Source of the DNA: a virus
Length of the DNA: 64,000 nt
Reading direction: 5' to 3' (one strand)
IMG/VR virus record: IMGVR_UViG_3300046318_000520
Coordinates: 32,001-96,000 of that record
Each line of letters starts with the position of its first letter. Position 1 is the first letter of the stretch. Below are positions 7,039-62,713 of the stretch, piece by piece. A program made the position numbers and the translations under genes. The notes beneath the pieces are model-generated. The model saw nothing but the letters and a program-made list of their open reading frames with translations, was not told where the DNA came from and ran no database searches.

Positions 7039-10000
7039 ATGGCAGTTCCTACTGGTGTTATTCCTGAAGAATTAATGGGTGCGTATTCAGAAGATCCTTT
7101 TCTTTCTTTACCGGCTCAATCAGAGCTTGGTATGTTAGACCTGATAGGTAACACAGGTATGAGTCAGGGACCTGCTGTACAGGATGCTGTACAAAACGGC
7201 CTGGATGCATTTGCAAAACAACCAACAAGTATGGAAACCTTGTCGGCTCCCAGGTTTTTTGACTATGAAGGAGCTCAGACAGACAGGTACAAGCAATCTG
7301 ATAATTTCAGGGAGCTTGGATTTGATCCATTTGGAGGAACAGAAAACGAATACAAGTACGGTGCCCGCCAGACATGGGGTGACGTATGGAGTAATGGTTT
7401 AAGCGGTATGTTTAAGCTGGCCGGTAATACTTATTTGGAAGGATGGAAAGGCTGGGGTAACCTGGCTGATGCTGTTTATTCTGACGGCAACTGGTTTAAT
7501 GCTGATAAGTTAATGGGTTCTTCTGAAGAACTTTTGGCTCAGGATAAGGCTACTAAGGATATTATGAACAAGTATGCCATCTTTTCTACACCTGAAAGTG
7601 AAGAAGGTTTGTTCAACAGGAAGTTCTTTGGTGACATGTTGCAGCAATCAGGTTTTGCCGTAGGCGCCATAGGACAGTTTCTGACAGAGGAGCTTATAAC
7701 CATGGGACTTTCTACAGAATTTTCCCTGGCTAAACTGGGTATAAAGGCACCGGCGTGGGCTGGTAAAGTTGTAACTAAAGCTGACATAGCTGCTGATATT
7801 GTTAAGTTGGGTAATCCTGTAGTGCAGTCAACAAGATTATCTGAGGCACTTGTACAAGGTGCTCGTAGCATAGTTCCGTTTGCTGACATGGCTTATGATA
7901 TTAACCGGTATAAAAAAGCCGGAGCTGGAGCCTTACAAATAGCTTCTATTGGAGCAGGTGGTGTAAGGCGTTTTTTATCAGAGGCCAACATGGCTATGAC
8001 TGAGGCTCGTATGGAGGCTGCCGGTACTTATGGAGAGCTGTATAATAAACTTTATGATGAGTCTTTAAATGCAACAGGTCAGGCACCTTCTGGTCTAGAG
8101 CTTAACAATATGGAAAAGACAGCTAAAGATGCTGCCTTTGATAACTTTATGGTAAACACCGGCATTTTGATGCTGTCTAATCGTCTGCAGTTTGATAATC
8201 TGTTCAGCAAATTTGGTGTTGGTAGAAATGTATTGGGAGCTGCCGGTGAATACGCTGATGATGTATTAAAAGTAACAGGAAAAAGAGCAGGTCAGGAGGC
8301 CGTAGAAAACTTTACCAAGACATATGCCAAAGGTCGTTTTGGTACATTAGGTGTCCTTGGAGGTATAGCTGCTGATTTTGGAAAGAAACGTGCAGCCTGG
8401 GAAGCTACAAAGTCTTTTGGTAAGAATTTGTTTAAATGGGAAGCTTCCGAAGGTATCCAGGAACTATTACAAGAGGGATCAAACAAGGGACTGCAGGACT
8501 ACTACTATGATCTATACCATGGTAACAAGGGATATGACAGTAAAACGGATGCTATGCTTAGCAGCATTCAGAATCCTTTGACAGACCTGGAAGGTGCAAA
8601 GACATTTCTTATGGGTGCCCTTACAGGAAGGTTGCTTTCCCCGATTAACTTTGCAATGGGCTCTGCTAAAAAGTATGCAAGTACCACGGCTGAACAAAGA
8701 GCAGAACGTACAGCAGATCTTGAAAAGACTGTTTTTACAATAAATGCGTTTTATGAAAATCCTCAGCTGTTTTTAAACGAACATATTGCCAACGTAAAGG
8801 TCCAGGACAGGGCAGCTAAAAATATGGAAGAGGCGGTTGTTAACCGTGACAAGTACCAGTTTGTGAATAACAAAGACGGTGCGTTTGCCAAGCTTATGTC
8901 TGCAGCCATGAAAACAGATATGTACAAGGCTGTAACAGATACTATTCGTGGCTATGGAGAAAACTTCAACGATGAGGATTTCAAGAAAGCTTTTGGTATT
9001 GACAAGACAGAAGAAAACATGTCTTCTGTAAAGGATTATTTTAATAAGATAGCAGACGAAACAGACAGCTTCCAGAAAAACTGGAAGGCGTTAAAAGAAA
9101 AATACGGTGACAGGGTGCTACTGGATTTATACAAAGAGGGTACACCTGAGCGTAAAACAGCTCTGATGGCTAAGCGTGCTTTGGATGACGCCTTGGAAAT
9201 ACTGGCTACTAATAATTATAAGGCAACCAGGTCTGCAGAAAGAGCTGTTAAGTTACAAACAGATATGGCTGCTATTCCTGTATTGGGTAGTTCTGCCGCA
9301 GCTGCATTCCGTAACCTGGCCGTTGTACAAAACACGGCTAAGGAAACAGAGCTTATAGAGCAAGAGTTAAAGAGCCTGGAGCTTGTAGAGAAAAAAGACA
9401 GGGCCACTAAAGAGCTTATCAAAACAAAAAAAGAACAGCTTAAGAGTCTAAAAGACTGGAGTGAAAACTATGAGGTTCTGAAAGGCCAGGGGGTCAAGCA
9501 AAAACGCAAGTTTAAAAAAGCTGTTAAGGCATTTGAAAACTATTTCAGGTCTAAGAACATGGAGTCTGGTATTACCCAGGAAGTTAAACTTGATCAGATA
9601 GATGAGATTTATACTAATCTGATAGATTACATTGAGCTTAATAATGATAGCAAAGACTATATAGATGCTTATAATATAATAGCTAATCCTATTAAGTTTG
9701 CCCAGGTGCATGCTAGATTATTAGATGCCATGGAAGTGACAGGTAATAAGCTAAATGCAGAACACCTTCAAGAAGCAGCAAATGCATTAAATCCACAGGC
9801 ACCTCCTGCTGGTAACCCTCAACAACCTGGTGGATCACCTTCTACTGAGGCTCCTGATTTTATGCAGTATTTAAAAGATGCATGGGATTCACAGACTGTT
9901 ACAGGATCCACTACATTACCATTTGATGAATGGTTAAAATCTCCTGTAGCCAAAACATTTACAGAGCTTTATAATAAAAAGTATAACAAGACTGAAAAAT

Positions 10001-13000
10001 TGGGCAGTACCAGCAATGAATTAGCTGTCCTTAAAAATGATCTATTAAACAATACACTCACAAAGGAATATTTAGAAAGCTTTAATGAAAGGCTTAGTAA
10101 AATACTTAACCTGCCTATTATAAAAGTACAAGAACTTTATGATCAGTTTCAGAAAGCATTAGACCCTAAGCAGGTAGAAAAAGATATTGCTGAAATGGGC
10201 TTTCCTGAAAACCCTACAGCTGAACAGGTTTTCCAGACAGTTAGCAAATACCTGCTGCCTAAATTTATTGATAGCCTTATTAACGCCGGATCTACTGAAG
10301 GTGGTAATATAGTTGGCTCTGATAAAGCCAACATGGAAGTTATAGAACTTCCTGCAATGAAAATAAAGTTAACAAAGCCTGCTCTTTTTGAAGGGGAAAA
10401 ACTTGTTGATGACGGTAAAAACGGAGTGTTTATTATAGAGACCGGTTTAGTAGCTGATCAGGCTAAACGTGATGAACTTATGAAGTTGATGGGTGCTGGC
10501 TCAACGGCAGGTGCCCCGGTTACAGCATTTATTGTTGTTAACTCTGATAGAGTAGATCCTGTAACATTAAGCAGTGATCTTGTAAGGTATCAAAAGAAAT
10601 CTGAAGCTTATACCGTAAGGGATGAGGCAATTAAAAACAGGGAACTGCAGGATAAAAAATCCAGATCATGGTACCAATTTGATGGTAAGGAAGTAAGAGC
10701 AGGCCTTGTTCTTACAAATAAGGATGGTAAATCCTTTGTTGTTGCCACAACGGGGCAGCCTTATTTTGCAAAGGATGATGTAGACAAAAAAGTTCCTTTA
10801 ATTAAAATTACCATGCTGCGTAATAACTCACGCACTAATACACATAGTTTTATATCCAGCTTAGAAGGATATAACATCAAACAAAAGGTTGAAAAGTTAA
10901 GCACAGGAGAACCTGTAGACACCAATACCTTTCGTTTATTTCGTACAGAAGAGCTGTCTCGTATCTTTCCTAACAAAGCAGCTAATGAGAGTAAGGAGGA
11001 TGCACAGAAAAGACTGGATACTCTTTTGAAAAACACAGATCCTAAAGAACTTCTTGCTGGTCTGTCTATTACTGTTTCAGAAAACCCAGGAACTCGTAGT
11101 TCAAAAAATGCAGGTGCTGATAGTGATAAAACACCTAATTCCAACCTTATACAATATGGTGATAAGTATCAGATTCAGATTAGTTATAAAGGACAAACTA
11201 TTGGTTTTTTAACTAACTATGATCATTTAAGGTTTGTAACTGCCAATGGTACACCTGTACCTATGAGCAATCTTACGCTTGATCAGTTTAGAAGCATTTT
11301 TGATTCTCAGGGTAAGGATCCAAAAGAACAAATGGAACTGTTCAAACGTGCGTATGAAAATTCCAGAAAAGTATATATTGCGCTGACCAAGAACATAAAG
11401 CCTGGTCAACCTGTATCTTTTACACCTGAACAAGTAGCTAAGATCTTAACAGTAAATATTGGGGCCGGTGAGTTTGACTTTGTACCAAAGACAGAAAAGG
11501 GAGTAACTTATGATGAGCTTCCTTTTAAAACAATCAATGGTTATTATTATATACTGGATCGTTCCAAGCGTTATGGCAAAGGTTACACTTTCTCAGTGAC
11601 TGAAAATGCTATTACCAATGCAAAAGGTGATGACCGTAAACAGATTGAAAAAGAAATAAAACTAATCAGGCAGCAGCGTGATGCTACAGAACAGCTTGGT
11701 CGTTACGTAGCTGTTATAAAACTACCCAATGGTAAGATAAGGTTTGTTGAACTGAATACAGAAGCAATGGCTGATACTCAGTTGAATGATATAATCACCA
11801 AGTTGAATGAACGCAGTGAAATCACTAAACGTGATAACCTGCAGGAAGGGCTCAATGAAAAGAAAGAGGTTATTCAAAACCGTAAGAAGATAGATTTTAA
11901 TGAAGAGCTAAATTCAGAGCTTGCTCAACAGTTGTTTCTTTCTGTACCCCAGGCTAATAAAGGAACCTACATAAACTTTTCTATTACAGATACTGGTAAC
12001 CTGGAACTTGCTTTTCATAAAAAAGTGGATAATAAAGATATCCGCAGGTCAGTTGTGGTCATGGGTAAGTCTGGCAAGGATCCAATTAATATCAAAAATA
12101 TTGATGATTTAATTAGCAGGATAAATGCTGCTATAGAGCGTCATGATAAATCATTTGCCAAGCGTGAAGTTGATCAGATTGGAATTACATTAAAAAAAGA
12201 AAACTTTAAACAGTCTACTCCGGATACATCTTATATTGATGATGTAAAAGGACTGAGGTCTAATGTTTCTGCAGATATTAGTAAGAATATACCTTTAACC
12301 ATTAAAGCGTCTTCAGATCTTAATATTCCGGAAATAACACCTGCACCTGCAGGAAATGCAGCCAACAAAGGTCAGGCTGATAGCAGTGGTATTGATCCAG
12401 CTATGAGAGCTGCCTTTTTTAAGGAAATGGGTGTAGAGGATACTACTAAGGGGCAGTCTCCTGCTCCAGGACAGCAACCTACTGAAACACCACTTCAGGC
12501 TTTATACGCACAACTTAATAGTCTTAAAAGTGAAAAAGAACTTGAGACTATAAAGCGCAGGGATGAAAAGATTGCTGCCGGTCAAAGACCATCTTTGGCA
12601 ATGCTTGAAGCTAATGATGAATCTTCTGCTATATATGATAAAAAGATTAAAGAGGCACAAGCCAAGGTAAATGCAGAAAAGAACTCAAACAAAGGTTCTG
12701 CACTTAAAGTTCTTGATAAACCATTCTTTGATCAGAACAGTATTGTAAGCATAGACAGGTTTCGTAAATACATCAGTAGAGTTTTAGGTGATAAAGTATC
12801 TGTCCAGGAAATGGATATGATAGCTGATAACTTAAAAAATAACAACATTACAGTAGGTAAGTTTATTGCCTACATGGAGTCAGTAAGAAAGGGAAGTCCT
12901 GTTGTAAAAGGTCGTATTGAGGTGGGTGAAAACACACCTTTTAAATACCATGAGGCATTTCACGCTGTATTCCGTTTGATGCTTACTGATGCACAAGTGG

Positions 13001-16000
13001 ACAAGCTGCTGGCCTATGCAAAAATGGAGTTTAAGAAAAGCCTTCTTCCTGGTCAGACTGTTGTATCTAAGATGGCTGAGATGCGTCAGCTGCATAAAGT
13101 ATATGCAGAGATGACAGATGTAGAGTTAGAAGAAAGAATGTATGAAGAATATATGGCCGATCAGTTTGATACATGGAAGATAAACCAGGATTCTAAAAAG
13201 GTTATTCCAGGTATTCGTGGCTTTTTTATGAAGCTCTGGGACATGATTACTTCTTTATTTAAGGGTGGCAAGAATCAATTAGAATCACTCTTTAAAGAAA
13301 TTGAACGTGGTAAGTACAGAAACGCCAAGATAGCGGACAATCGTTTTACCAAAGCTGACGCTCTTAGTGTTAGTGAGCCTGTGCTCAAAGCAATACAGGT
13401 GGGTACAATAGATGTACAGGATGAGAATGGTCAGTTTATTACTATACCTAAGTACCTGTCTCAGCAGGACGGGGATCAGATGGCAAGTACAGTAGCTTCT
13501 TTGTATCATAGCAGGGTTTTGAATAACACAAACAGCGGCTATAATAAGAAAGAAGTTTTAAATAATATATATGCAGATTTCCAGGAGCTCTATGACATCA
13601 ATGGAGCCAATCGTGAGTTTTATCTTAATGAAGCAGATGCTCTTTTTGAAACTGATCCTAACCTGGCAAAAGAATATCTTAACAGACTTGAACAAAGACA
13701 TACTATATTCTTAGAAAAAGACAATCGTCAGACTCTTTCTGAGTCAGTAGATATCCATCTTCGTGTAATGGGATACCAGCAGGAACTGGAAGATGATGAA
13801 TATATATCCATGGAAGACGAGTTTGGTTCCAGGGTTACTACTGAAAACTGGAAAGAAGCACATTCTATTGGTGGCTTTGGAAGCTTGAGTAAGTTTTTAC
13901 GTCAGTATATAGCATCTACTACTTTTATTCTGGACCGTGATGAGTTTGGAAATACCCAAATGGTTAACGGAGAACCATTGATCCAGGCTGTTAATGCCAA
14001 CCTTGTTTACAGCGGTATTTTAAAAGCCGTTGCTAACATTACAGATCAGAAAAAATTTGTCAACAGGCTTCTTGAATTAAAAAGTGCTGATACAGAAACC
14101 AGTAAGTTTCTAAATAAATTCTTTGATGAAGTTGGTCTGGAAATAGATCCTGATACAGGAGAGTTTGCAGTTACAAATTCAAAGCAGGCTACTTTATTTC
14201 AGATGGTTCTTAAAGGTTTTCAGCAGTATACAGTGGATTACATCTTTATAAACAAGGATGTACGTAAGTCTAAGAAGGTGTCAAGGCTTATGATTGCCAA
14301 CCGTATGGGAGCTGTTAAAGCACAGTTTACACAGTGGCAGAATGCGTATGTACATGTTTTTGAAGAACCTGTATTAAGACTTCGTTCTATTGAGGAGAGA
14401 AAAGAATTTGCTAAAGAAAAAACAGGGGCCCTGCAAGACTTGTTAACAAATCTTAATCCTACTGGATACATTTCTGATGAAGAACTGGCACTTGATTCTG
14501 AGATGTTAAGCAATCAGCTTAAGACAGATTTAGGTATTTCTTTATCTCCTTTGTATATTAAGTACGCCATAGCAGCATCTAAGAATGCTGATATAAAAAC
14601 TGAGGCTCAAAGAAAACTTAGTGAAAGCTATAGTGACGTTGTTGGTATTGATCCGGATGCTATAAAACAATTGATCAAGTCTGTACAGGCTCTGGAAAAT
14701 CCTTTTGCTAAAAACATTGAACCATCAAACCAGGATTTGGATGTTCCCGGACAAGATGATGACCAACAGGAAAAAGAGGCTATTGACAGCCTGGGAGAAG
14801 GAGGAGCTATAAAACGTGTTAGTGAGCTGGCTGCCGGTAATGCCGTCTTTGATGAGACAGTAAGCACTACTTCCTATAAAAATGCAGAAGGTGAACTTGT
14901 GTATGCGCATCAGCTTCCTACATATCATTTGGTTAAAGTAAATGAGTTCAACAATGATACTGAGCTGACTAACATGCAAGTATCTGACGAATTTATGCAG
15001 GGTAATATGTTGCTGGATTCTGCCAAGTTCCGTTCTATGAGCGGTGACTTTGTTGTAGAAAGAATTGAAGGAATGAAAAGCTCTATTCTTTCTGAAGATG
15101 AAGATGGTAATTTAAGAGAGGATAAAACAATTCAGAGTAACCAAAATGAGGGGATCACTTATGGATCATTCTCTGACCGTGAGTTCATTGTTTCTTTGTT
15201 GGATCTGTATGCTTATAATAAAACATATAAGAATACAGCAGGTACATTTAGAACAACACAGCATCTTATAAGAGTTATTGAAGCCTCTAATACAGGAGAT
15301 ACTATTTCACTGCCTGCAATTTCTGCTGTTACTTCTGATCAAAACGGCAAAGTAACATTAAGTCAGGAAGCGTTGACTATCCTGATGCAGGAAGTTGCCC
15401 GTGAGTTTGAACGTATCAAGCGTGTACGCAGAGAACTTGCCACTGGTGTATATGAGAATGGAGAAATTGAGGGATATCATTACGCTGTAGATGGGGATGG
15501 CCGCAGGACTAATAAAAAGGTTCCAAGGGGTCTGAAGTTTTACAAGACGGCTAATATGCTTGGAAGCCTTGCTTTGGAACTGGAAGAGTCATCCAGGAGC
15601 GGATCATTTGATTTAAGCTCCCGTGCAGCAGAAATCAATGCCCAATTTAAAAGATACTGGGAAGCCAGGATGGAAGAATTTGTAGACAAGCTTGATAACA
15701 TTGGTGTAGTAAGTACTGTAAAAAGTGAAGACCCTGAAGAAAACGGTAGGCTTATTAACAACCTGGTTGATGATTTTATTGAAATTGGTTTTACTGTTAA
15801 AGATGACGGTAAAGAAATACTGGATGAAAAAAGGAATCAAGATCTGAATATTATCCCAGGTAATATGAAACACAACCTGGGTCAGATCATGATGAATGAT
15901 TATCTAAACACAATGGCTGTAAATCAGCTTTTGTATGGAGATGAAGCCCGTGCCTTTAAAGATGAGATTGATCAGGTCAAGCGTGCAAAAGGAGCTAACG

Positions 16001-19000
16001 GTTCTGGTCAGTCTTTGGAGTCCTTGGTAACTAATGAAGAATTGGGTATTACAGAATCCTTCACTGAAAGTTATATATTAACTTTTACAGATCCTAAATA
16101 TAACGCCCGTTTTGCAGGTGGACTTAAAGATAAAGCAGATGCTCAGTCTTACCAGAGTGTGAAGTCAATGAGGTATACACTTCATGGACTTGGAAAACTT
16201 ACTCCGTATGCTGCCAAGATCCTTGATAAACTTGAGCGTGGTGACAAGCTTACCAAAGAAGAGGTATTTGGTCCTAGTGGTCTCAAAGCCATGGAAGCTA
16301 TGTTTAACTCTGAAAAGCTTGTTTACTTTGATGGTCCTCAGTATATCAAGACTTCTACAGTAATGCTTACAAAGGAATTGACTTCTGTATTGGTGAATGG
16401 TAAATGGCTTGCACGTCCTGGATATGAAGATCTGCACGACTTACGTGAGCGTCTTGAAAAGTTTGAAAAAGACAATAACACAGTAACTTTTGCTGCTCCT
16501 AAAAGTGCCAGCAAGGGACTTAAGAGAAATGTTTTTGATCATAATGAAGGGTTTCGTAATGCAAAAGATGATAACTTTTCCCGCCAAGAAACCAAATACT
16601 GGAGACTACAGTTGGTAAATCCTTCTAATAAAGTTATGATAACAGATCCTACGCAGGCAAAACAAATCATTATTGCAGAACAGAATGATGATACCTCTGT
16701 AGAATTTATGGGTGTTAACACCACTATTGGTGAACTTAAAAAAGCTTATTTAAACGATACAGCTCAGCGTGTCAACAATAACTATACAAGAACCAGAGAT
16801 GAAATATTTGACATAGAAGAAGGTTTCTCTGAACTTGGTAAAGCTATTCAGCAAGATAAAATATCTTCAAAGCTTGAAAAATTCCAGGCCAGGGCTATAG
16901 AAAATCTTAGGTCTACTGGGGCTGACAGCCAGCTTATTGAATTTTTCTCATTGGATCCGGAAACAGGAAAACCTAATTACAACCTGAACAATCCTGTCAC
17001 TCTGGAAAAATACACACAGCTGTTTCTGGCTTATTTTTCAAAAGGAGTACTTAGTGAAAAAATTCCTGGTCACTCTGTTGCTTTGATGTCTAACTACGGT
17101 ATAAAAGTAGTTAAAGTATTTACAGGTAAGTTTGACGAAAGCGGAGCACCTATTGGTCAGATTGTATCCAGGGATGAGGTTGAAAGAAACTACAACAAGT
17201 ACAAGAGCGTTAAAAAGTGGAACAACGATGTTGATCGTCAGTTTACAGGTCTTGTTGCCGGTGACATATACCTTGATGATTTAAGGCATAATGTACCAGA
17301 GTTTGATAGCAAGGGTAAAATCATAGGACGGTATACAGAGTTTATGATGCCTCCTCACTTCATGGAAGATATGGGTCTGAAACCAGGGGATAAAATACCT
17401 GACCATATAGCCAAAGCATTTGGAGTGCGTATTCCTTCACAGGATAAACATAGCTTTATTTCTCTTAAACTGGTAGATTTTCTACCTGCTTATTACGGAT
17501 CTACAGGTGTGTTCCCACATGAGCTGATTGAAATATCCGGAGCTGACTTTGACATTGATAAACTCTATATGCACATTGCAGATACGTATTCCAAAAATGG
17601 TAAGCGTATAGCATATGGTACAGAGAAATCCAAGACAGGCCGGTTTGAAGAATATGTACGCTGGAATGATAAAAACAATAAAGCATTTAGAGATACTTTA
17701 GATAAACTTAAAAAAGAGAATGTAAGATACCAGGAGCTTTTACAAAAGCAGGCTGCTATGAAACGTCTTGAAAAAGATATTGACAAAGCGTTTGATAATG
17801 TCCAGCAGAGTGATGGGTCAATTAAAGAAGGTTTTAACACGGCTATTTTGAGTGCAAGACTTGTAGATCAGGTTATAATGGGGCTTCTTGGTCAGGACCA
17901 AAATCTTGATGTAAAACAATATGACACTGAGTATGGTCTTATTGAGAGTGTCTACTTTATGAAAGATCTCAATGAGATGTTGAACAAGTTGGAAGAAAAA
18001 GACAAACGTGATTACTTGTTAGCAATGGGTTCTGACTTCTTCAATCAATTTGAAGACATCACAGCAAAGCTTGCAGATGTAGAAACAAGGCTTATTTCTG
18101 AGACACTTGCTGAATTAAAACTCCCCAGTTCTATTACTAAATATGCTGAGTCAGCTGAAGAATTGAACAACGGCGTGCTAAACAACCGTATCCTGGATCA
18201 AAAGATTGCAATGCTTAACAATGAGCATATGGTTAGCGGTGGAGAAAAGGCCATTGCTTATCAGGTAGCTTCTGTGGATGCATTAAAAAATCTTCTTGAT
18301 GAAAGCAAAGAAGGTAATTTGTTAGAGCTGCTCTCTATAGGTGTGGATGAAAATGGTAAAAAAATATATCCGGAAGGGCTTGCTGAGATCTTGTTGGAGG
18401 GTGGGGTAGATACTGACTCTATGCTTGGTAAGTATAAGGCATTTAAAAACAATAAGGAGGGTAGTCGTCTTATCGGTCCTGCTGTAAATTCAATGCTTAC
18501 ATATGCAGTGTTTAATAACTTTGGTATTTCATTACGTGATACAGCTATTGATCCAATAACCGGTGAGACTATTCAAATGTTCAAGTTTAAACTGAATGGA
18601 CATGTGTTCACAGGGTATAATGAAACCCGTAGTGCAAGGTTTGATGCTGAAGGCAAGTTCCAGGGCTATGATGGAGAGCGTGTATTTAATACTATTTCCA
18701 CTATTGTATCAGCTATGACCGATAACGCCAAAGAACGTTTGGCTGCTCGTCTTGGTTTGAATATAGAAGCTATAGGATATGTATCCAACATGGTTGCACA
18801 GGGTGTACCTATACAGTCTGCTATTATGTTTATGCTTCAGCCTGTAGTGCGTGAGTACTTTGAGCTTACAAAGATTGCATCTAATAATATTAAGACTGGT
18901 GCAGAAAGTGAAATTTACAAATCACAAGTTGCTAAAGAACTCAGGAATAAATATCTTGAACTGGCAGGTGAGGACTTTGTAAAAGAAGATATCACTGATG

Positions 19001-21414
19001 AAATATTAGTTGAAAATATAAAAAACAAAGGTGCCAGTGCTAACTATCAAGCTTCTGTTCTGTTAGACTTTATAGGTATTATAGATCAAAGTAAATATTA
19101 TGCAGCTGTAGCTCAGGTGTTAAAACTTACTAAGGGTCTTGGTACAAGTTTTGAAGACTATGATGCTATCAATGACAAAATTGAGATGCTGGGTCTAAGA
19201 GTTAGTGACGATAAACAATTTGAAAAGTTTATTCCGCAAGGACAGACAACACCTCCGCCTTTTGATCTCAGACAGATTCTCATGGGCTATGATAATGATA
19301 AACCTTATCATACAATTATTCAGCGTTATATCAAAATTGCTGATCAGATCAGTGAGATCAGTAAAGGTATGTTCCTTGAAAGAACTGCTGTGTTTAAAAG
19401 GATTGAAAATATCATTAAAGATAACTTGACAGTAAGATCCAGCTTGAAACAAAAGTTTAATTCAGATCTGAAAAAAGATCTGCTGTCATATCTTTCTATT
19501 AAAGCATATCGTAAATACCTTGCTGAAAATGGAAGATCAGGAACTCTTTCCACTATGACCAATGCTTTGATTTATGATGAAGCAGCTGTAGCAAAGGGTG
19601 ACAAGTTTAGTGATATAGTAGACGTTTTACGTGTAATCAGGGAGAAAATGCCAAATAACTATTTGGCCTCTAACTTTTTAAACATGATAAAGACCACTGT
19701 GGTGGACGCATCAGGTAATGCATCTCTTAATCCTAAAAACCGTGATGGTATTAATAAGATTGAGTCTAATACCTGGGCAAAACTTAGTGAGTATCAGGTA
19801 GAAAAGCTCCGTGATTCCTTTATAGAGATTTACCAGTCTGACATGGACTTTGATGGACAGGGTGCTAATGGACGTGACATGGCTAATGCTTTGTTTAACT
19901 ACCTGCTTGTAAAAGATGGTGGTCAGTTTAGAAGTGGTTCATTTATCAGGTATGTTCCCAATTTTATGTTCAATGATCTGTTGATGTCCACTGGTTTGGC
20001 TAATGATGTTATGAAGCTTTCTGTAAAGGCTGATAACGTAGATCAGATGGACGAGGCGTATAAAAAAGTGTTTGGTATTACTGCTGTAGAACTGTTCAAC
20101 GAGTTTATGGAAAACTATACCACACATGTAGGAAACTCTTACTATGTTAAAAAGCTTAGCTTAAATAATGAAACTAAGTTTGATCCTACAGGAAACTCTG
20201 AAATAGATGGTTTTGAACCTCAGTCTGTGGTTCCCAGCAAGAAAGAAGGATTTATTATTAACATATTTAAAGGTGTAAGAAAAAAGGAGCAGGCTGTATC
20301 TGAAATTACCCTTGAGGAACAAGCAGGTATTACATGGATGAGTGATGAAGATTATTTAGAGTATGTGGATAGCTTGACTGATGAACAAAAAGAGTTAGTT
20401 AAAGAACAACAGGCTAAATCCAAAAAGTATAATGATGTAGAGAAAGGTAAGTTTGCTAAGAACATGCAGTCTCTCAGGGATAAAGGGTTTAGAACAAACA
20501 CCAAGAACGAGGTAGAGTTTCCTTACATTATCAGGGTACCCGCCGGTGAAATGTTTACTGCAGATAGTTATTACATTCTTAAGTCTGTAAGAAAAGCTGG
20601 TCAGAACAAGGATAAAAAAATAGATTCTAAAAAGCTGATTCAGAAAAATGAAACTATTGCAGCAGGTGTTTCTGCAGTGTATGAGCCAGTTGAAAGAAAA
20701 GGATCCAGAAAAACCTTTAAAGGAGCTGCTATGTTTGATGCAATTCCTGAAACAGCTAAGCTTCCACGTTACCGTAAAGCGGTTGATAACAATTCAAGTT
20801 ATTCTCCTTTTTACCAGACAATGAATGCAGATGCTGAAAAAGAAGAGCTCTGGATGCAGAATCATGGTTTTGCACCAAAAGATTCTACTAAGGCGGCACC
20901 TGTTTCTGCACCTGTAGATACAGGCTCAAGGTCTCCAAAGGATGTACTTTTACAAGACTATGGTATCCAAATGAAGTATGACAGTGTTTTAAAAATGTTT
21001 ACCTTTGTTGGAGATATTTTGAATGATATTCCAGATGATATAAAATCCTCAGTAGGAGGTAATCCAAAAACACTTCTTTCTATGCTTGGATACAAACCTA
21101 CAGCTCCTGCTCCTCAGGTTCAGCAAGCTTCTCCACTACCTGCAGGCGTTCCAAAAATCAGCAAAGAAGCTGGAAAAGGAATATCAGATATGAACATGCG
21201 TAATAGCTTAATGGCCGCCATGTTTGGTCAACCTGCAACGTCTACTCCGGAGTCTACTCCTGGTGCAGGATCTCCTTCTGCAGGAACTAAAGTTGATGAT
21301 GTTACATTGAGTGAAACAGCGGCTAAAGGTATCTCTGATATGGAGAAGTATAAACAGCTTATGAGAGCAATGAATGGTGAAAATCCACTCAATGATGAGT
21401 GTGCCCAGCCATAA
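7039..21414 (+). CDS. Giant virion-packaged RNA polymerase polyprotein (crAss-like, phi14:2 gp66-type) with zincin-like domain
   Basis: RIPSQ (17428) and ISGADFDIDKLY (DFDID at 17545-17559) double-psi-barrel RNAP motifs; HEAFH...EEYMAD zincin motif at 12949; Gly/Ala-rich hydrophobic N-terminal segments; 4791 aa. Confidence 0.9.
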   Translation: MAVPTGVIPEELMGAYSEDPFLSLPAQSELGMLDLIGNTGMSQGPAVQDAVQNGLDAFAKQPTSMETLSAPRFFDYEGAQTDRYKQSDNFRELGFDPFGGTENEYKYGARQTWGDVWSNGLSGMFKLAGNTYLEGWKGWGNLADAVYSDGNWFNADKLMGSSEELLAQDKATKDIMNKYAIFSTPESEEGLFNRKFFGDMLQQSGFAVGAIGQFLTEELITMGLSTEFSLAKLGIKAPAWAGKVVTKADIAADIVKLGNPVVQSTRLSEALVQGARSIVPFADMAYDINRYKKAGAGALQIASIGAGGVRRFLSEANMAMTEARMEAAGTYGELYNKLYDESLNATGQAPSGLELNNMEKTAKDAAFDNFMVNTGILMLSNRLQFDNLFSKFGVGRNVLGAAGEYADDVLKVTGKRAGQEAVENFTKTYAKGRFGTLGVLGGIAADFGKKRAAWEATKSFGKNLFKWEASEGIQELLQEGSNKGLQDYYYDLYHGNKGYDSKTDAMLSSIQNPLTDLEGAKTFLMGALTGRLLSPINFAMGSAKKYASTTAEQRAERTADLEKTVFTINAFYENPQLFLNEHIANVKVQDRAAKNMEEAVVNRDKYQFVNNKDGAFAKLMSAAMKTDMYKAVTDTIRGYGENFNDEDFKKAFGIDKTEENMSSVKDYFNKIADETDSFQKNWKALKEKYGDRVLLDLYKEGTPERKTALMAKRALDDALEILATNNYKATRSAERAVKLQTDMAAIPVLGSSAAAAFRNLAVVQNTAKETELIEQELKSLELVEKKDRATKELIKTKKEQLKSLKDWSENYEVLKGQGVKQKRKFKKAVKAFENYFRSKNMESGITQEVKLDQIDEIYTNLIDYIELNNDSKDYIDAYNIIANPIKFAQVHARLLDAMEVTGNKLNAEHLQEAANALNPQAPPAGNPQQPGGSPSTEAPDFMQYLKDAWDSQTVTGSTTLPFDEWLKSPVAKTFTELYNKKYNKTEKLGSTSNELAVLKNDLLNNTLTKEYLESFNERLSKILNLPIIKVQELYDQFQKALDPKQVEKDIAEMGFPENPTAEQVFQTVSKYLLPKFIDSLINAGSTEGGNIVGSDKANMEVIELPAMKIKLTKPALFEGEKLVDDGKNGVFIIETGLVADQAKRDELMKLMGAGSTAGAPVTAFIVVNSDRVDPVTLSSDLVRYQKKSEAYTVRDEAIKNRELQDKKSRSWYQFDGKEVRAGLVLTNKDGKSFVVATTGQPYFAKDDVDKKVPLIKITMLRNNSRTNTHSFISSLEGYNIKQKVEKLSTGEPVDTNTFRLFRTEELSRIFPNKAANESKEDAQKRLDTLLKNTDPKELLAGLSITVSENPGTRSSKNAGADSDKTPNSNLIQYGDKYQIQISYKGQTIGFLTNYDHLRFVTANGTPVPMSNLTLDQFRSIFDSQGKDPKEQMELFKRAYENSRKVYIALTKNIKPGQPVSFTPEQVAKILTVNIGAGEFDFVPKTEKGVTYDELPFKTINGYYYILDRSKRYGKGYTFSVTENAITNAKGDDRKQIEKEIKLIRQQRDATEQLGRYVAVIKLPNGKIRFVELNTEAMADTQLNDIITKLNERSEITKRDNLQEGLNEKKEVIQNRKKIDFNEELNSELAQQLFLSVPQANKGTYINFSITDTGNLELAFHKKVDNKDIRRSVVVMGKSGKDPINIKNIDDLISRINAAIERHDKSFAKREVDQIGITLKKENFKQSTPDTSYIDDVKGLRSNVSADISKNIPLTIKASSDLNIPEITPAPAGNAANKGQADSSGIDPAMRAAFFKEMGVEDTTKGQSPAPGQQPTETPLQALYAQLNSLKSEKELETIKRRDEKIAAGQRPSLAMLEANDESSAIYDKKIKEAQAKVNAEKNSNKGSALKVLDKPFFDQNSIVSIDRFRKYISRVLGDKVSVQEMDMIADNLKNNNITVGKFIAYMESVRKGSPVVKGRIEVGENTPFKYHEAFHAVFRLMLTDAQVDKLLAYAKMEFKKSLLPGQTVVSKMAEMRQLHKVYAEMTDVELEERMYEEYMADQFDTWKINQDSKKVIPGIRGFFMKLWDMITSLFKGGKNQLESLFKEIERGKYRNAKIADNRFTKADALSVSEPVLKAIQVGTIDVQDENGQFITIPKYLSQQDGDQMASTVASLYHSRVLNNTNSGYNKKEVLNNIYADFQELYDINGANREFYLNEADALFETDPNLAKEYLNRLEQRHTIFLEKDNRQTLSESVDIHLRVMGYQQELEDDEYISMEDEFGSRVTTENWKEAHSIGGFGSLSKFLRQYIASTTFILDRDEFGNTQMVNGEPLIQAVNANLVYSGILKAVANITDQKKFVNRLLELKSADTETSKFLNKFFDEVGLEIDPDTGEFAVTNSKQATLFQMVLKGFQQYTVDYIFINKDVRKSKKVSRLMIANRMGAVKAQFTQWQNAYVHVFEEPVLRLRSIEERKEFAKEKTGALQDLLTNLNPTGYISDEELALDSEMLSNQLKTDLGISLSPLYIKYAIAASKNADIKTEAQRKLSESYSDVVGIDPDAIKQLIKSVQALENPFAKNIEPSNQDLDVPGQDDDQQEKEAIDSLGEGGAIKRVSELAAGNAVFDETVSTTSYKNAEGELVYAHQLPTYHLVKVNEFNNDTELTNMQVSDEFMQGNMLLDSAKFRSMSGDFVVERIEGMKSSILSEDEDGNLREDKTIQSNQNEGITYGSFSDREFIVSLLDLYAYNKTYKNTAGTFRTTQHLIRVIEASNTGDTISLPAISAVTSDQNGKVTLSQEALTILMQEVAREFERIKRVRRELATGVYENGEIEGYHYAVDGDGRRTNKKVPRGLKFYKTANMLGSLALELEESSRSGSFDLSSRAAEINAQFKRYWEARMEEFVDKLDNIGVVSTVKSEDPEENGRLINNLVDDFIEIGFTVKDDGKEILDEKRNQDLNIIPGNMKHNLGQIMMNDYLNTMAVNQLLYGDEARAFKDEIDQVKRAKGANGSGQSLESLVTNEELGITESFTESYILTFTDPKYNARFAGGLKDKADAQSYQSVKSMRYTLHGLGKLTPYAAKILDKLERGDKLTKEEVFGPSGLKAMEAMFNSEKLVYFDGPQYIKTSTVMLTKELTSVLVNGKWLARPGYEDLHDLRERLEKFEKDNNTVTFAAPKSASKGLKRNVFDHNEGFRNAKDDNFSRQETKYWRLQLVNPSNKVMITDPTQAKQIIIAEQNDDTSVEFMGVNTTIGELKKAYLNDTAQRVNNNYTRTRDEIFDIEEGFSELGKAIQQDKISSKLEKFQARAIENLRSTGADSQLIEFFSLDPETGKPNYNLNNPVTLEKYTQLFLAYFSKGVLSEKIPGHSVALMSNYGIKVVKVFTGKFDESGAPIGQIVSRDEVERNYNKYKSVKKWNNDVDRQFTGLVAGDIYLDDLRHNVPEFDSKGKIIGRYTEFMMPPHFMEDMGLKPGDKIPDHIAKAFGVRIPSQDKHSFISLKLVDFLPAYYGSTGVFPHELIEISGADFDIDKLYMHIADTYSKNGKRIAYGTEKSKTGRFEEYVRWNDKNNKAFRDTLDKLKKENVRYQELLQKQAAMKRLEKDIDKAFDNVQQSDGSIKEGFNTAILSARLVDQVIMGLLGQDQNLDVKQYDTEYGLIESVYFMKDLNEMLNKLEEKDKRDYLLAMGSDFFNQFEDITAKLADVETRLISETLAELKLPSSITKYAESAEELNNGVLNNRILDQKIAMLNNEHMVSGGEKAIAYQVASVDALKNLLDESKEGNLLELLSIGVDENGKKIYPEGLAEILLEGGVDTDSMLGKYKAFKNNKEGSRLIGPAVNSMLTYAVFNNFGISLRDTAIDPITGETIQMFKFKLNGHVFTGYNETRSARFDAEGKFQGYDGERVFNTISTIVSAMTDNAKERLAARLGLNIEAIGYVSNMVAQGVPIQSAIMFMLQPVVREYFELTKIASNNIKTGAESEIYKSQVAKELRNKYLELAGEDFVKEDITDEILVENIKNKGASANYQASVLLDFIGIIDQSKYYAAVAQVLKLTKGLGTSFEDYDAINDKIEMLGLRVSDDKQFEKFIPQGQTTPPPFDLRQILMGYDNDKPYHTIIQRYIKIADQISEISKGMFLERTAVFKRIENIIKDNLTVRSSLKQKFNSDLKKDLLSYLSIKAYRKYLAENGRSGTLSTMTNALIYDEAAVAKGDKFSDIVDVLRVIREKMPNNYLASNFLNMIKTTVVDASGNASLNPKNRDGINKIESNTWAKLSEYQVEKLRDSFIEIYQSDMDFDGQGANGRDMANALFNYLLVKDGGQFRSGSFIRYVPNFMFNDLLMSTGLANDVMKLSVKADNVDQMDEAYKKVFGITAVELFNEFMENYTTHVGNSYYVKKLSLNNETKFDPTGNSEIDGFEPQSVVPSKKEGFIINIFKGVRKKEQAVSEITLEEQAGITWMSDEDYLEYVDSLTDEQKELVKEQQAKSKKYNDVEKGKFAKNMQSLRDKGFRTNTKNEVEFPYIIRVPAGEMFTADSYYILKSVRKAGQNKDKKIDSKKLIQKNETIAAGVSAVYEPVERKGSRKTFKGAAMFDAIPETAKLPRYRKAVDNNSSYSPFYQTMNADAEKEELWMQNHGFAPKDSTKAAPVSAPVDTGSRSPKDVLLQDYGIQMKYDSVLKMFTFVGDILNDIPDDIKSSVGGNPKTLLSMLGYKPTAPAPQVQQASPLPAGVPKISKEAGKGISDMNMRNSLMAAMFGQPATSTPESTPGAGSPSAGTKVDDVTLSETAAKGISDMEKYKQLMRAMNGENPLNDECAQP

Positions 21415-60424: not shown

Positions 60425-61276
60425 TTAAAAGATATACCGGATACCAGCCGGATCAAAGAATTCTGCATACAGTTTGGTAAAGTCCTGTATCATTTGACGT
60501 TTAAGCTGCCATTGGTAACGGATATTATCTGGTGCATACTGGCTGTCTTTCATTTCCTGTATGTCTGGTCTCCAGATTAATGATCTCACCTCATCTGAGT
60601 TACGAGCATGTTGATGTACATTATGTGTGAGGAATATACACTCACACTTGACATTTATACCAGCTTCCCAGATTTCCTTAAAAAGTTTGTGATACTCAAC
60701 TAACCACCCGTCATGATAAATGATAGGAGAGAAGTTGATGTGCACTTCCATGTGATTCTGTAGCCTAGTAATACTAGCTATACGATCTGAGATTTTATCT
60801 GTACCTGGTTCTAATACATCAGAATATATCTGAGGCATCAGGCTTACCCTGACTCTGTGTTTGACCGGGTCCATATTGTACCAATAAGGTAACAACATTG
60901 TAGGATACTTGGTAGCAAACGTGCTTTTAGCCTTGGGCTCTACATTGAAATAGTCAAAGACTATTTGCCAATCATAATGCTTACGCATAAGAGCTACGTC
61001 AGTGCTGCATCCAATATCAATAGTGTAATATTCAGAATCTACTTGATTAGGAATCTTCGGCCAGGGTTGTTTTTGTACCCATTGATCTACAGATGCTATA
61101 ATGGGTAAGAAGTTTTCATTGACATACACTTTGTCATGATTATATCTACCTACATAGCAGTAGGAGGACATACATCCTCCTAAACAGCCATATATAAAGT
61201 TTGGACTGATAGCATCAGAGCTACGTCCATTGTCTCTTGTAATAAGAGTTTTAGTTTTTTGCTTGATGATCTGCAT
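60425..61276 (-). CDS. Spore photoproduct lyase-family radical SAM protein (TIGR03886-like)
   Basis: GCLGGCMSSYCY cluster, DIGCSTD, FATK, RVRVSLMP, EVHINFSP, IFLTHN, LIW.P..QE.K.S...N.RY. Confidence 0.8.
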   Translation of the reverse strand: MQIIKQKTKTLITRDNGRSSDAISPNFIYGCLGGCMSSYCYVGRYNHDKVYVNENFLPIIASVDQWVQKQPWPKIPNQVDSEYYTIDIGCSTDVALMRKHYDWQIVFDYFNVEPKAKSTFATKYPTMLLPYWYNMDPVKHRVRVSLMPQIYSDVLEPGTDKISDRIASITRLQNHMEVHINFSPIIYHDGWLVEYHKLFKEIWEAGINVKCECIFLTHNVHQHARNSDEVRSLIWRPDIQEMKDSQYAPDNIRYQWQLKRQMIQDFTKLYAEFFDPAGIRYIF

Positions 61277-61383: not shown

Positions 61384-61548
61384 TCATTTTGTTTCTTCTT
61401 TTTCTGTCCTGTGAATATGTGTTGTTCTGATATTTGTCTGACTGATTACAGGTCTGTCAGACGTAATAATACGATAGGCTAAAGCAGCACCAGTAACTGT
61501 AAAAAAGATCATTAGGCCACCGCCTGTTAGAGAAAGAAATGTATCCAT
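61384..61548 (-). CDS. Small membrane-anchored protein (54 aa; not in ORF track)
   Basis: N-terminal hydrophobic segment; fills the gap in the operon. Confidence 0.5.
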   Translation of the reverse strand: MDTFLSLTGGGLMIFFTVTGAALAYRIITSDRPVISQTNIRTTHIHRTEKEETK

Positions 61549-61575
61549 GGTTTATGGTTTAATTGTTAAAGAAAG

Positions 61576-61604
61576 AAAAACCTCCAGTGTAGAAACACCG
61601 GAGG
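61576..61604 (-). terminator. Terminator downstream of tmRNA
   Basis: Minus strand CCTCCGGTGT-ttct-ACACTGGAGG followed by a U-run. Confidence 0.7.
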
Positions 61605-61634
61605 AAAATTTATAATAAACAATAAAAAACTAAG

Positions 61635-62413
61635 TGGAGGTAGCCGGATTTGAACCGGCGTCCAAACGAGAAGTCAATAAACAAAGAGATGTTACATGCT
61701 TAGTACTGATATCTACTCCGGGATCCCGTATGTAAATAATCTGCACCGTAGTTTTGATCTGTTCATTATGTATATCCCGGCAACATGTGTTACGTTAGTT
61801 CAAAAGAACTCGTACAACTCATGGGAGGAGCGGCATCATCTCCATTCTGTCTTAAAAACAATATGAACTAATCAGTAGGGCTGACCATGTTATGGTCCGA
61901 TCCACCACCTGGTTTTAGCTATCAAGTGTGAAACCAGGAAAGTCCACTTTTATACAAGAGGGCACAGGAAGCATACAGTCAGAACTTTGAGAGTTCAATA
62001 CTCTTAACGGTTCGTTTGGCCCAGTGTTTATTACCCTTTTCCCCAACCGCCTATCGTCTGTTTAGGTTCCTGACAATGTATAATAGGAGGGCTGGATGTA
62101 CGTTCATGACTTTGGGAGCGTAACTCTTAATATCAATGGGCTAGTGTTTATCCTCCTGTTTTTTTGGACCTCATCTATCCAATGTTCCAGAGATGCCGTT
62201 TTGCCATTTTCTGTTGCCAGGGATAGCTCCCCCGTAGGTTAGGCTGCTACTGCAACCTCACCGAAGATAGAAGCTAAAATAGCTTCACCTTCTGCTACAC
62301 GAGAAGACTGTGTCTTGCCGTTTAAAAGTTAGCTCCGTGATTAAAGTGGTTTGAGAACCTTCCCACTGCATGTTTGCTTACCACTCACAAGTCTGTCAAA
62401 ACCTGTTACCCCC
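61635..62413 (-). ncRNA. ssrA: tmRNA, unusually long (~779 nt)
   Basis: 5' GGGGGTA pairs with 3' TACCTCC-A including G3:U70; TTTTGACAG D-loop; T arm GCCGG-TTCAAAT-CCGGC; helix 2 pairings (ACATGC/GCATGT); PK1; resume context TTTTAAAC-GGC; tag ending AVAA*. Confidence 0.93.
62239..62319 (-). other. tmRNA tag reading frame (A)GKTQSSRVAEGEAILASIFGEVAVAA*
   Basis: 26 codons plus TAA after the resume motif; Ala-Ala C-terminus. Confidence 0.8.
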
Positions 62414-62419
62414 ATATTG

Positions 62420-62671
62420 CTAGTTTAAATCTAATGCTTTAGTCCACTTCTTACAAGAAGCTACAGGATCTTTAACATAGTCTGTTAATTCAGCCATTGC
62501 AGCCAACGGATCTGTAAATGCAATGGATTTACATCCAACACGTACTACGCAGCCTGAAGTAAAAAACTGAATAGTCACTTCATACTGCTGTCTTAATTGA
62601 TCAGCTGTAGGAATGTACTGATCTGAATAATCATTTTGTGGTTCTGGAACATGTGATAAATCCGGTCTCAT
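62420..62671 (-). CDS. Hypothetical protein
   Basis: GCVVRVGCK motif; ends 6 nt before the tmRNA 5' end. Confidence 0.65.
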   Translation of the reverse strand: MRPDLSHVPEPQNDYSDQYIPTADQLRQQYEVTIQFFTSGCVVRVGCKSIAFTDPLAAMAELTDYVKDPVASCKKWTKALDLN

Positions 62672-62713
62672 TGTTTGTTTTTTTTGTGTTATAAATCCTA
62701 TCTAAAGTTTAAC

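Follow-up and report, generated by a model that had tools for sequence, protein, structure and literature searches.

Few small RNAs have been studied as closely as tmRNA, whose size is generally taken to lie within narrow bounds. A length of about 350 nt is typical, and the longest molecule in the 2005 alignment has 425 nt (PMC1168896). In the account of a 2025 tmRNA database, which holds 79 phage entries, the most frequent tag length is 10 aa, and the longest tmRNA genes given are a permuted form of 1152 bp and an intron form of 1116 bp (PMC11915505). For E. coli, PK2 and H5 alone are described as contacting the ribosome, with the ring flexible around the 30S beak (PMC8363625).

Here, we analyze a window of 64,000 nt from a 127.7-kb phage record of IMG/VR (freshwater, 99% complete), which carries on its minus strand a tmRNA gene of 779 nt (61635..62413) in the standard, non-permuted, one-piece form, recognized from its sequence and from its homology to relatives that ARAGORN or RF00023 call as tmRNA. 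These coordinates are exactly those of an earlier note on this DNA, which had described a one-piece phage tmRNA with all the hallmarks of the tRNA-like and mRNA-like domains; G3:U, the T arm and the tag frame are indeed present. In the ring of this RNA, two pseudoknot modules of about 110 nt stand in tandem, and the terminal hairpin is present twice, once with 106 nt inserted at its apex. We consider it probable that the gene encodes a working phage tmRNA of standard form that depends on host SmpB, and that its expansion segments lie in the ribosome-free part of the ring.

The gene, its family and its detection

ARAGORN reports no tmRNA in the window or in the whole phage record, and Rfam at gathering thresholds finds nothing in the window; RF00023 matches the 3' end of the gene alone, at 17 bits (E = 1.7e-4) against a cut-off of 47 bits. 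Neither the Rfam gathering threshold nor ARAGORN would class the gene as a standard tmRNA, and since the full Rfam model and ARAGORN both fail on it, its membership rests on homology to relatives; the acceptor with G3:U70, the T arm, the tag ORF and helix 2, by which membership was judged, are all there. The relatives form a family of 41 distinct sequences of 355-779 nt, found only in viral and metagenome contigs and in none of 185,579 species genomes. ARAGORN recognizes 23 members, the longest no longer than 444 nt, and misses every member from 461 nt upwards; L002 is called only as a spurious permuted form. RF00023 scores 58-88 bits on all six relatives tested (355-681 nt, including those of 640 and 681 nt). 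The failure of the finders follows insert length rather than loss of features. Because the 18 missed members are all at least 461 nt long, surveys based on ARAGORN undercount phage tmRNAs; the methods of one survey of huge phages name this program (PMC7162821).

The locus has no blastn match among 50,697 GenBank phage records, and two exact probes of 29 and 25 nt, taken from the 3' half, matched L002 alone. Models of permuted tmRNAs (RF04321, RF01849-51) gave only sub-threshold local matches of 16.4 bits, and a permuted, two-piece form is ruled out by the standard gene order, in which the acceptor 3' half does not lie upstream of the 5' half. CCA is not encoded. Thirty nucleotides past the 3' end lies an intrinsic-terminator-like hairpin of 10 pairs followed by a U tract (61571..61604, minus strand). 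On either strand, the gene is overlapped by short ORFs (43-56 aa), none with a Pfam match. The absence of smpB from the window, as the earlier note had it, extends to the entire phage record (PF01668) and to all five of the other large phages of the family. No cultured phage has a DNA polymerase more than 35% identical to that of the present one, and no host was assigned by this route; a TAnnTTTG box, which we take to be of the Bacteroidota type, stands upstream of only 4 of the 41 family genes. A plus-strand GGAAAGUCC considered as an RNase P motif was dropped, being 9 nt long, on the wrong strand and unmatched in Rfam.

The core elements, all on the minus strand, can be followed through the RNA. 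The acceptor stem pairs GGGGGUA (62407..62413), with G3 opposite U, to UACCUCC at 61642-61636, next to the discriminator A at 61635; all seven pairs are canonical in 41/41 family sequences, with G3:U never varying and with compensatory changes at pairs 4-7. This 3' strand and discriminator form, together with the T arm GCCGG UUCAAAU CCGGC, the segment of the local RF00023 match (61635..61659). Helix 2 joins AAACAUGC at RNA positions 39-46 to UAAGCAUGU at 712-720 around an ACAUGC/GCAUGU core, and its 3' side, UAAGCAUGU...UUUGGAC (61660..61702), falls where relatives align to the Rfam consensus ACUAAGCAUGU. A putative PK1 region (62322..62370) is assigned from its place in the RNA and from the way Rfam aligns the relatives L016 and L017; its first stem, AGUGG/CCACU, is clear. 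PK2, GGGGGA GCUA UCCCU GGCAACAGAAAA UGGC (62203..62233), has two stems that both covary across the family.

The tag reading frame (62239..62319) runs from the resume codon GGC through 26 codons to UAA, with the product GKTQSSRVAEGEAILASIFGEVAVAA and the ending GCA GUA GCA GCC UAA (...AVAA), and its frame and register match the ARAGORN tags of relatives, for example GTSNVDRVAEGEAILASIFGEVAIAA in L008. Within the frame lies the helix 5 hairpin GAAGCUAUUUUAGCUUC (62270..62286), which reads GAAGCA..UGCUUC in relatives, a change that is both compensatory and synonymous. Tags across the family have 26-27 aa and share the core R[V/I]AEGEAILASIF. This conserved tag was found neither in the 185,579 species genomes nor in the literature searched, which suggests that these phages may redirect tagged proteins in their own way.

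Structure and variation of the ring

Growth of the pseudoknot ring downstream of PK2 accounts for the 779-nt length of the RNA, which is double the normal one. The earlier note had placed the excess in the pseudoknot region, with about 540 nt between tag stop and helix 2, and this agrees with our count of 536 nt (RNA position 175 to 712), compared with 114 nt in the smallest relatives, the family minimum for the whole RNA being 355 nt. Both parts of the ring vary by degrees through the family, with the 779-nt tmRNA the largest in each: the stretch from PK2 to a GGUGG anchor (site-1 gap plus PK3 hairpin) spans 34-300 nt, and that from the anchor to helix 2 spans 48-206 nt.

Between PK2 and PK3 lie two diverged tandem copies, about 110 nt each, of a pseudoknot domain that we call module X. 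Copy 1 (62085..62191; nhmmer E = 4e-23) consists of P0 CUGGA/UCCAG, a Pa hairpin, P1 AGGAG/CUCCU, P2 UGAU/GUCA and P3 GAGU/GCUC, and has BLAST-level homology to L014, L017, L029 and L039. Copy 2 (61955..62073; E = 2e-17) has P0 CAGGA/UCCUG, P2 GAAC/GUUC and P3 GAGU/ACUC. Seven distinct copies occur in five distinct tmRNA genes (10 loci with near-identical duplicates), of which only four copies are truly divergent. With their own partners, the four stems have 5/5, 5/5, 3-4/4 and 4/4 bases paired; with swapped partners the averages are 4.5, 3.5, 2.3 and 3.6, with a bias for P1, which was selected within small search windows for its best complementarity. Pairs were counted by script, as the MAFFT alignment misplaced the 3' strands of the module and of the PK3 hairpin. 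P0 is compensatory between the copies (CUGGA/UCCAG versus CAGGA/UCCUG), and module X is in all likelihood a selected structure with compensatory support. Under energy models that allow only nested pairs it has no advantage over shuffled sequences, its core pattern outside tmRNAs gave only chance matches in coding DNA, and no Rfam family matches it.

PK3 (61901..61948) comprises the hairpin CCUGGUUU/AAACCAGG, the GGUGGUGGA block and an upstream AAGUG complementary to the loop CACUU, a pairing read from the sequence by hand and common to L012 and L021. The hairpin stem, CCTGGTTT/AAACCAGG, is fully paired in 31/36 relatives with 15 stem types. It is followed by a conserved ring hairpin, GGACCAU AAC AUGGUC (61883..61898), whose place is taken in relatives by other self-complementary stems such as GACGUC..GACGUC and GCGACC..GGUUC. 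Terminal-type hairpin A (61756..61873) has the stem GAUUAG/CAGAUC with a conserved A.A mismatch, and its variants covary (GAUCAG/CAGAUC, AAUCAG/CAGAUU, GAUCAA/UAGAUC); its apex ranges in the family from 4 nt (CUUG) to the 106 nt of the RNA studied here. This apical insertion, insert 2 (61762..61867), is without homologues among the 40 other members of the family and elsewhere in the phage's own genome, and a 20-mer from it is absent from IMG/VR. Hairpin B (61703..61746), with the stem GUGCAG/CAGUAC and a 32-nt apex, repeats the terminal hairpin in tandem (fold z = -2.82).

These comparisons modify the view of the expansion given in the earlier note. The complementary words listed there all exist, but CCTGGTTT/AAACCAGG and GACCAT/ATGGTC belong to conserved hairpins of the core ring and not to the expansion. 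A further pair, TACTGAT/ATCAGTA, had been thought to close a multibranch domain; as it overlaps the covarying stem of hairpin A (GAUYAG/CAGAUC and variants), that helix probably does not form. Since about 18 perfect 7-mer complements are expected by chance in 779 nt, as simple arithmetic shows, such words are no proof by themselves. The expansion had also been called densely paired, whereas by folding energy the inserts alone are at chance (z = 0.01, -0.39 and -1.02); the whole RNA gives z = -3.59 with only 20 shuffles. Of the extra structured domains proposed, the two module copies are upheld as conserved and covarying, and insert 2 has neither comparative support nor covariation.

Other copies of the locus bear on its stability. 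An independent DNA run from another sample (X2) contains an identical copy, insert 2 included. A 437-nt contig from a metatranscriptome library, from a relative about 95% identical, runs unbroken through both copies of module X, and a second RNA-library contig reaches 40 nt into insert 2, though such contigs may contain DNA and cannot show RNA ends; the 3' two-thirds of insert 2 is covered by the identical DNA contig alone, which extends up to window position 61703. In the RNA runs X13, X18 and X23, contigs cover the locus only in part, and the gaps carry no meaning. The 95% variant differs by G185-C192 to U-A in PK2, U414-A420 to C-G in P3 of copy 2 and U.G to U-A in P1, with zero changes inside the tag frame. 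RNA-library contigs of relatives contain the start of insert 2 and lack the modules, and in another relative a single 18-nt terminal hairpin of the GUGCAG/CAGUA type replaces 168 nt (most of hairpin A with insert 2, the linker and hairpin B). Contigs of close relatives that lack the module copies, or the whole hairpin-A unit, argue that the expansions are dispensable for basic tmRNA function.

What the expansions may be

By analogy with established tmRNA biology, the host alanyl-tRNA synthetase would charge the RNA via G3:U70, a host enzyme would add CCA, and host SmpB would bring the RNA to stalled ribosomes, where translation would restart at GGC and append the phage-specific 26-residue tag ending in AVAA. 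The expansions would stay in the mature RNA and behave like rRNA expansion segments, quickly gained, lost and swapped among related phages and unneeded for the core reaction. They would occupy the part of the ring that makes no ribosome contact; that the distal ring is free of contacts is established for E. coli, and the same may apply in the host of this phage.

The expansions could instead be separate functional add-ons, namely platforms, decoys or sensors (for example for nucleases, S1 or extra SmpB) or timing regulators. Module X is conserved with compensatory changes, keeps the unpaired motifs AUAAA, UUAAGA and CAAA invariant across its diverged copies, and is confined to the tmRNAs of the 41-sequence family, while the tandem pair is kept both in the 779-nt tmRNA and in L014/L039. 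A compact spacer would, however, conserve a fold equally well, and close relatives manage without the modules: L016, at 355 nt, and L017, at 640 nt, are nearly identical in their 5' domain. The modules match no Rfam family, and nothing in our analysis demonstrates the scaffold, decoy, sensor or processed-RNA roles suggested in the earlier note; we regard such add-ons as unlikely. A related and likewise doubtful idea is that the ring in this family is a cassette site, into which phages load structured RNA modules that can be exchanged and that serve separate purposes. If so, the modules might, for example, capture a protein, of the host or of the phage, where ribosomes are rescued, or protect the RNA from a host nuclease, and the 779-nt RNA would be a "loaded" version with three modules and not merely a long tmRNA.

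It is quite unlikely that one or both expansions are removed or cleaved after transcription, whether as an unrecognised intron or to leave two pieces of tmRNA joined by base pairing. Introns do occur in the family, where, as a positive control, the same Rfam search gave group I matches within the T loop of L027 (90.6 bits) and of L072 (85.5 bits); insert 2 is moreover unique and bounded by a stem, and natural two-piece tmRNAs exist, as permuted forms (PMC11915505). Yet a match to a known self-splicing intron, as considered in the earlier note, did not appear, since no Rfam intron matches at E up to 10 across 61400-62700. A group I intron (RF00028) was rejected specifically, there being no catalytic-core match and no interruption of the T loop UUCAAAU. 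Insert 2, at 106 nt, is too short to hold the core of either a group I or a group II intron. One RNA-library contig is contiguous through the first expansion and another runs 40 nt into insert 2, and the apparent skips in such contigs hold other letters between their ends, which marks them as relatives and not as splice joints.

For insert 2 alone, a small foreign insertion, be it a miniature mobile element or the scar of a recombination event, possibly belonging to the other strand, could be tolerated without having any meaning. It lacks a homologue among the 40 other family members, carries imperfect inverted repeats of 10 nt at its termini (GUUCAUAUUG / CAUAAUGAAC) and has a better fold on the plus strand (z = -2.63) than in the sense orientation (z = -1.02). 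This origin is nevertheless improbable, as the phage genome holds no second copy, the expansions in general not being a repeat element of it, and the 20-mer search of IMG/VR returned nothing. Insert 2 sits exactly at the hairpin apex where relatives bear other inserts of 29-73 nt, which fits expansion of a loop, and it recurs unchanged in X2. A decaying pseudogene swollen by junk, to which rejection by the standard finders and the largest expansions in the family might point, is very improbable given that all functional elements are intact and agree with the family consensus, that the 95% variant leaves the tag frame unchanged and keeps its stems by compensatory changes, that a clean terminator follows, and that X2 has the unchanged sequence in another sample.

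Comparison with known systems

The natural series of 355-779 nt, with the same core and tag throughout, offers a ready-made test of how large a ring can be accommodated around the 30S head and of what the ring is for. The expansions resemble those of rRNA in that extra helices are added to a conserved core at tips or junctions that face the solvent, vary among close relatives and are often dispensable; this is an analogy to a different RNA, drawn here from sequence. Intron-form tmRNA genes, with a group I intron in the T loop, are also long, up to 1116 bp in the entries described in PMC11915505, and occur in L027 and L072 of the present family. The gene studied here differs from them in having its extra sequence in the ring, an intact T loop and no group I signature.

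The known phage tmRNAs, among them those of Bxz1-like mycobacteriophages and Bacillus phage G, are likewise genes of large phages, and their function is mostly unproven. The parts of PMC4131195 and PMC11915505 that treat them mention neither an oversized ring nor such a tag, and the combination of oversized ring and conserved tag was not in print in the literature searched. The present family of 41 sequences comes, in contrast, from uncultured freshwater and other environmental phages.

With the standard bacterial tmRNA (RF00023; E. coli SsrA), the phage RNA shares the acceptor with G3:U70, the T arm, helix 2, a putative PK1, helix 5 and PK2, a resume codon and tag ORF with a hydrophobic Ala-Ala end, further pseudoknots and hairpins in the ring and, by prediction, dependence on SmpB. 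It differs in its length of 779 nt, a ring of 536 nt that includes two additional complex pseudoknot modules and a terminal hairpin both doubled and lengthened, a tag of 26 aa, and a phage-borne gene without smpB. Tandem units as a means of changing the number of ring pseudoknots have a parallel in cyanobacterial tmRNAs, in which pk4 is replaced by two smaller tandem pseudoknots. There, the replacement by smaller units is described as bringing no net growth (PMC1168896), whereas the phage ring has gained large units and grown almost five-fold.

A long tmRNA gene and its family

The gene lies on the minus strand of an IMG/VR virus record of 127,703 bp (completeness 99% by CheckV), of which the window covers bases 32001-96000, and inspection of window positions 62413 to 61635 found tmRNA features from the first base to the last. 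The acceptor stem (GGGGGUA/UACCUCC) sets G3 opposite U, with the discriminator A next to it; the gene does not encode CCA. The T arm (GCCGG-UUCAAAU-CCGGC) and the helix-2 core (ACAUGC/GCAUGU) are intact, and a tag frame running from RNA 95-97 (GGC) to 173-175 (UAA) (window 62239-62319) encodes GKTQSSRVAEGEAILASIFGEVAVAA and holds the helix-5 hairpin. A terminator hairpin of ten pairs with a U tract lies 30 nt downstream on the same strand. Between the end of the upstream ORF and G1 lie 6 nt and no sigma-70-like site, so the tmRNA is probably cut from a longer transcript.

ARAGORN found no tmRNA in the window, Rfam at curated thresholds gave no match at the gene, and RF00023 under permissive settings scored 17 bits at its 3' end only. 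Searches with the exact tag 22-mer, then with a degenerate back-translation of the tag core, retrieved 24 viral and 38 metagenome loci; the same search found the tag in none of 185,579 species genomes. From these 62 loci and the window, 55 complete genes were extracted (41 distinct sequences, 355-779 nt), eight loci being left out (contig ends truncated four, two had odd T arms, and a variant T loop and an intron accounted for one each). ARAGORN called a tmRNA in 23 of the 41, with tags such as AKTQSERVAEGEAILASIFGEVAVAA; all calls were at 444 nt or less and all 18 misses at 461 nt or more, and for one relative, L002, the call was a spurious permuted form only. Rfam gave 58-88 bits in all six relatives tested, L017 (640 nt) and L014 (681 nt) among them. 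The seven acceptor pairs are canonical in 41/41 sequences, G3:U is invariant, and both sides of pairs 4-7 change together across the family. Because the relatives are recognised as tmRNAs and the acceptor pairs are kept with compensatory change, the window gene belongs, on sequence evidence, to a genuine tmRNA family, in which it is the longest member sampled; its length alone conceals it from the finders. The giant tmRNA of the earlier note, for which these two tools were among the proposed checks, is thus upheld through its relatives, while the gene itself escapes them. The family tag (26-27 aa, core R[V/I]AEGEAILASIF), conserved even at the nucleotide level and not found in the searched literature, is a putative phage-specific degradation or targeting tag.

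Several neighbouring features were recorded. In the 40 nt scanned upstream (window 62414-62453 included), 4/41 genes have TAnnTTTG at a distance of 9-13 nt from the mature 5' end, where chance would give about 0.7, and a TAGA(T/C) word stands some 15-25 nt upstream of many other family genes, the window's included; these words may be a promoter or processing signal. In loci L008 and L024 the tmRNA 5' end directly follows what looks like the T arm and acceptor end of a tRNA (GGTTCGAATCC...), so that a tRNA gene abuts the tmRNA; two Rfam tRNA matches in locus L072 (246-370 and 522-649), at 125-128 nt far above tRNA length, are perhaps tRNA genes that are interrupted or aberrant. Downstream of the window tmRNA, past a 54-aa ORF (61384-61548), the second gene (60425-61276, minus strand) encodes a 283-aa protein that matches the spore photoproduct lyase family (PF20903, E = 3.7e-10). 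Giant proteins are predicted elsewhere in the window: an ORF of 4791 aa (7039-21414, plus strand) is followed by one of 1518 aa.

Two expansions of the ring

From tag stop to helix 2 the window has 536 nt, against 114 nt in the smallest members. Comparison across the family confines this growth to fixed places: PK2 and the GGUGG anchor (site-1 gap plus PK3 hairpin) lie 34-300 nt apart, the GGUGGUGGA anchor and helix 2 lie 48-206 nt apart, and both distances are greatest in the window. Two pairings that had been assigned to the expansion, CCTGGTTT/AAACCAGG and GACCAT/ATGGTC, are actually hairpins of the core ring. The former pairs fully in 31/36 sequences, which use 15 different stems; when partners are exchanged among these stems, full pairing is seen in only 48/210 combinations.

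The first expansion consists of two diverged versions of one pseudoknot unit, module X (RNA ~222-334, HMM E = 4e-23, and ~340-461, E = 2e-17; both minus strand). The HMM places other copies only in the tmRNAs of L014 and L039 (two each), L017, L024, L040, L061, L029 and L072, and a pattern scan of IMG/VR otherwise gave only chance matches in coding DNA. The module has a closing stem, P0 (CUGGA/UCCAG; CAGGA/UCCUG in copy 2; UUGGA/UCCAG in L014), one variable hairpin per copy, a P1 strand whose partner 3' of P0 makes the pseudoknot, and a P2-P3 hairpin flanked by UUAAGA and CAAA, both invariant. With their own partners the stems pair at 5/5, 5/5, 3-4/4 and 4/4 positions, and with swapped partners at means of 4.5, 3.5, 2.3 and 3.6, among only four truly divergent copies; P1 is the weakest stem because it was picked as the best complement within small search windows. 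A 437-nt contig from a metatranscriptome library (X13), ~95% identical to the window, has 14 substitutions, among them G185-C192 to U-A in PK2, U414-A420 to C-G in P3 of copy 2 and U381.G451 to U-A in P1, which support these stems from within the lineage of the window itself. The rings of L003, L004, L006, L009, L014, L017 and L029 share another recurrent module, GAGUCCUAUGAU-hairpin-GGAUACUGAUGGCGUGCUGA, whose hairpin covaries (AGCA/UGCU vs GGUAG/CUACC) and which is absent from the window.

The second expansion lies at the end of the ring, where a six-position stem directly before helix 2 closes it in almost all members. This stem (GAUCAG/CAGAUC, GUGCAG/CAGUAC, GUACAG/CAGUAC, AAUCAG/CAGAUU or GAUCAA/UAGAUC) always has an A.A mismatch at position five, and its apex can be as small as a CUUG tetraloop or run to dozens of nucleotides. 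Two tandem hairpins of this kind are present in the window on the minus strand, A (RNA 541-658, 106-nt apex) and B (RNA 668-711, 32-nt apex). The helix TACTGAT/ATCAGTA, previously proposed to close a multibranch domain, would draw one strand from each of them, the 5' strand from A and the 3' strand from B; it is unlikely to form, since it clashes with both conserved terminal stems. The 106-nt apex has no homologue among the 40 other family sequences and no second copy in the phage genome, IMG/VR shows no further occurrence of a 20-mer taken from it, and its fold on the tmRNA strand is unremarkable (z = -1.02), so a structure for it is unsupported. For the insert (window 61756-61874), the better fold is that of the plus strand (z = -2.63). 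Of the paired expansion of the earlier note, the module copies are supported, with compensatory changes, and the apex, lacking a homologue, is unsupported.

Intron, retention and turnover

A known intron removed in vivo would also explain the length. Intron families in Rfam gave no match at the window tmRNA at E up to 10, and the same library detected group I introns (RF00028) in the T loops of L027 (90.6 bits; about 1291-1504 and beyond, minus strand) and L072 (85.5 bits; about 7071-7287). The L027 intron has an ORF with a GFFDADGS-type motif, a putative LAGLIDADG motif. The T loop is described as the sole known place of tmRNA introns (PMC11915505). The X13 contig is continuous over PK1, tag, PK2, both module copies and PK3, and a contig from a second study, X18, reaches 40 nt into the 106-nt apex. 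Apparent skips in other RNA-library contigs were rejected as splice products: 18-120 other letters stand between the flanks, marking relatives with different ring contents. The expansions are no recognisable intron and, going by contigs that cannot prove transcription or show ends, are probably retained in the RNA, the contigs being unbroken through the first expansion and entering only the start of the second.

The X18 relative has the start of the second insert, yet its PK2 almost directly adjoins PK3. In a relative from another RNA library, X23, 18 nt forming a single short GUGCAG/CAGUA-type terminal hairpin replace 168 nt, namely most of hairpin A with its insert, the linker and hairpin B. 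L016 (355 nt) and L017 (640 nt) are each 82-84% identical to the window 5' domain. This domain is nearest to L017/L024 and the 3' domain is nearest to L002/L052, each at 84%, which suggests recombination within the gene. Given these differing rings and nearest relatives, the ring is quickly rebuilt and the gene looks mosaic; judged by such comparisons, the core does its work, whatever that may be, with no need of the expansions.

Mechanism and comparison with known tmRNAs

A tmRNA is alanylated through G3:U70 and bound by SmpB, and translation resumes on its tag frame; the window tmRNA would follow the same steps. Since the whole phage record has no SmpB gene, in keeping with what had been said of the window, and 5/5 other large family phages have none, host SmpB would be used. 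In E. coli cryo-EM structures the 30S beak is encircled by a flexible ring of pseudoknots, and the ribosome contacts PK2 and helix 5 only (PMC8363625). What the family conserves in its ring is helix 5 and PK2, and all growth lies beyond PK2, as expected if size is free where contacts are absent. Because of this restriction, the modules are best read as expansion segments; that they have a function of their own seems to us improbable.

Phage tmRNAs are known from Bxz1-like mycobacteriophages and phage G (PMC4131195) and from huge phages (PMC7162821), with 79 phage entries in a 2025 tmRNA database (PMC11915505). About 350 nt is typical, and 425 nt was the longest in a 2005 alignment (PMC1168896); the longest genes of the 2025 database, 1152 and 1116 bp, owe their length to an intervening sequence and an intron, respectively (PMC11915505). 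A ring that has grown by added modules did not turn up in the searched literature, the database's per-sequence supplements being outside its scope. In some cyanobacteria, tandem small pseudoknots replace pk4 (PMC1168896).
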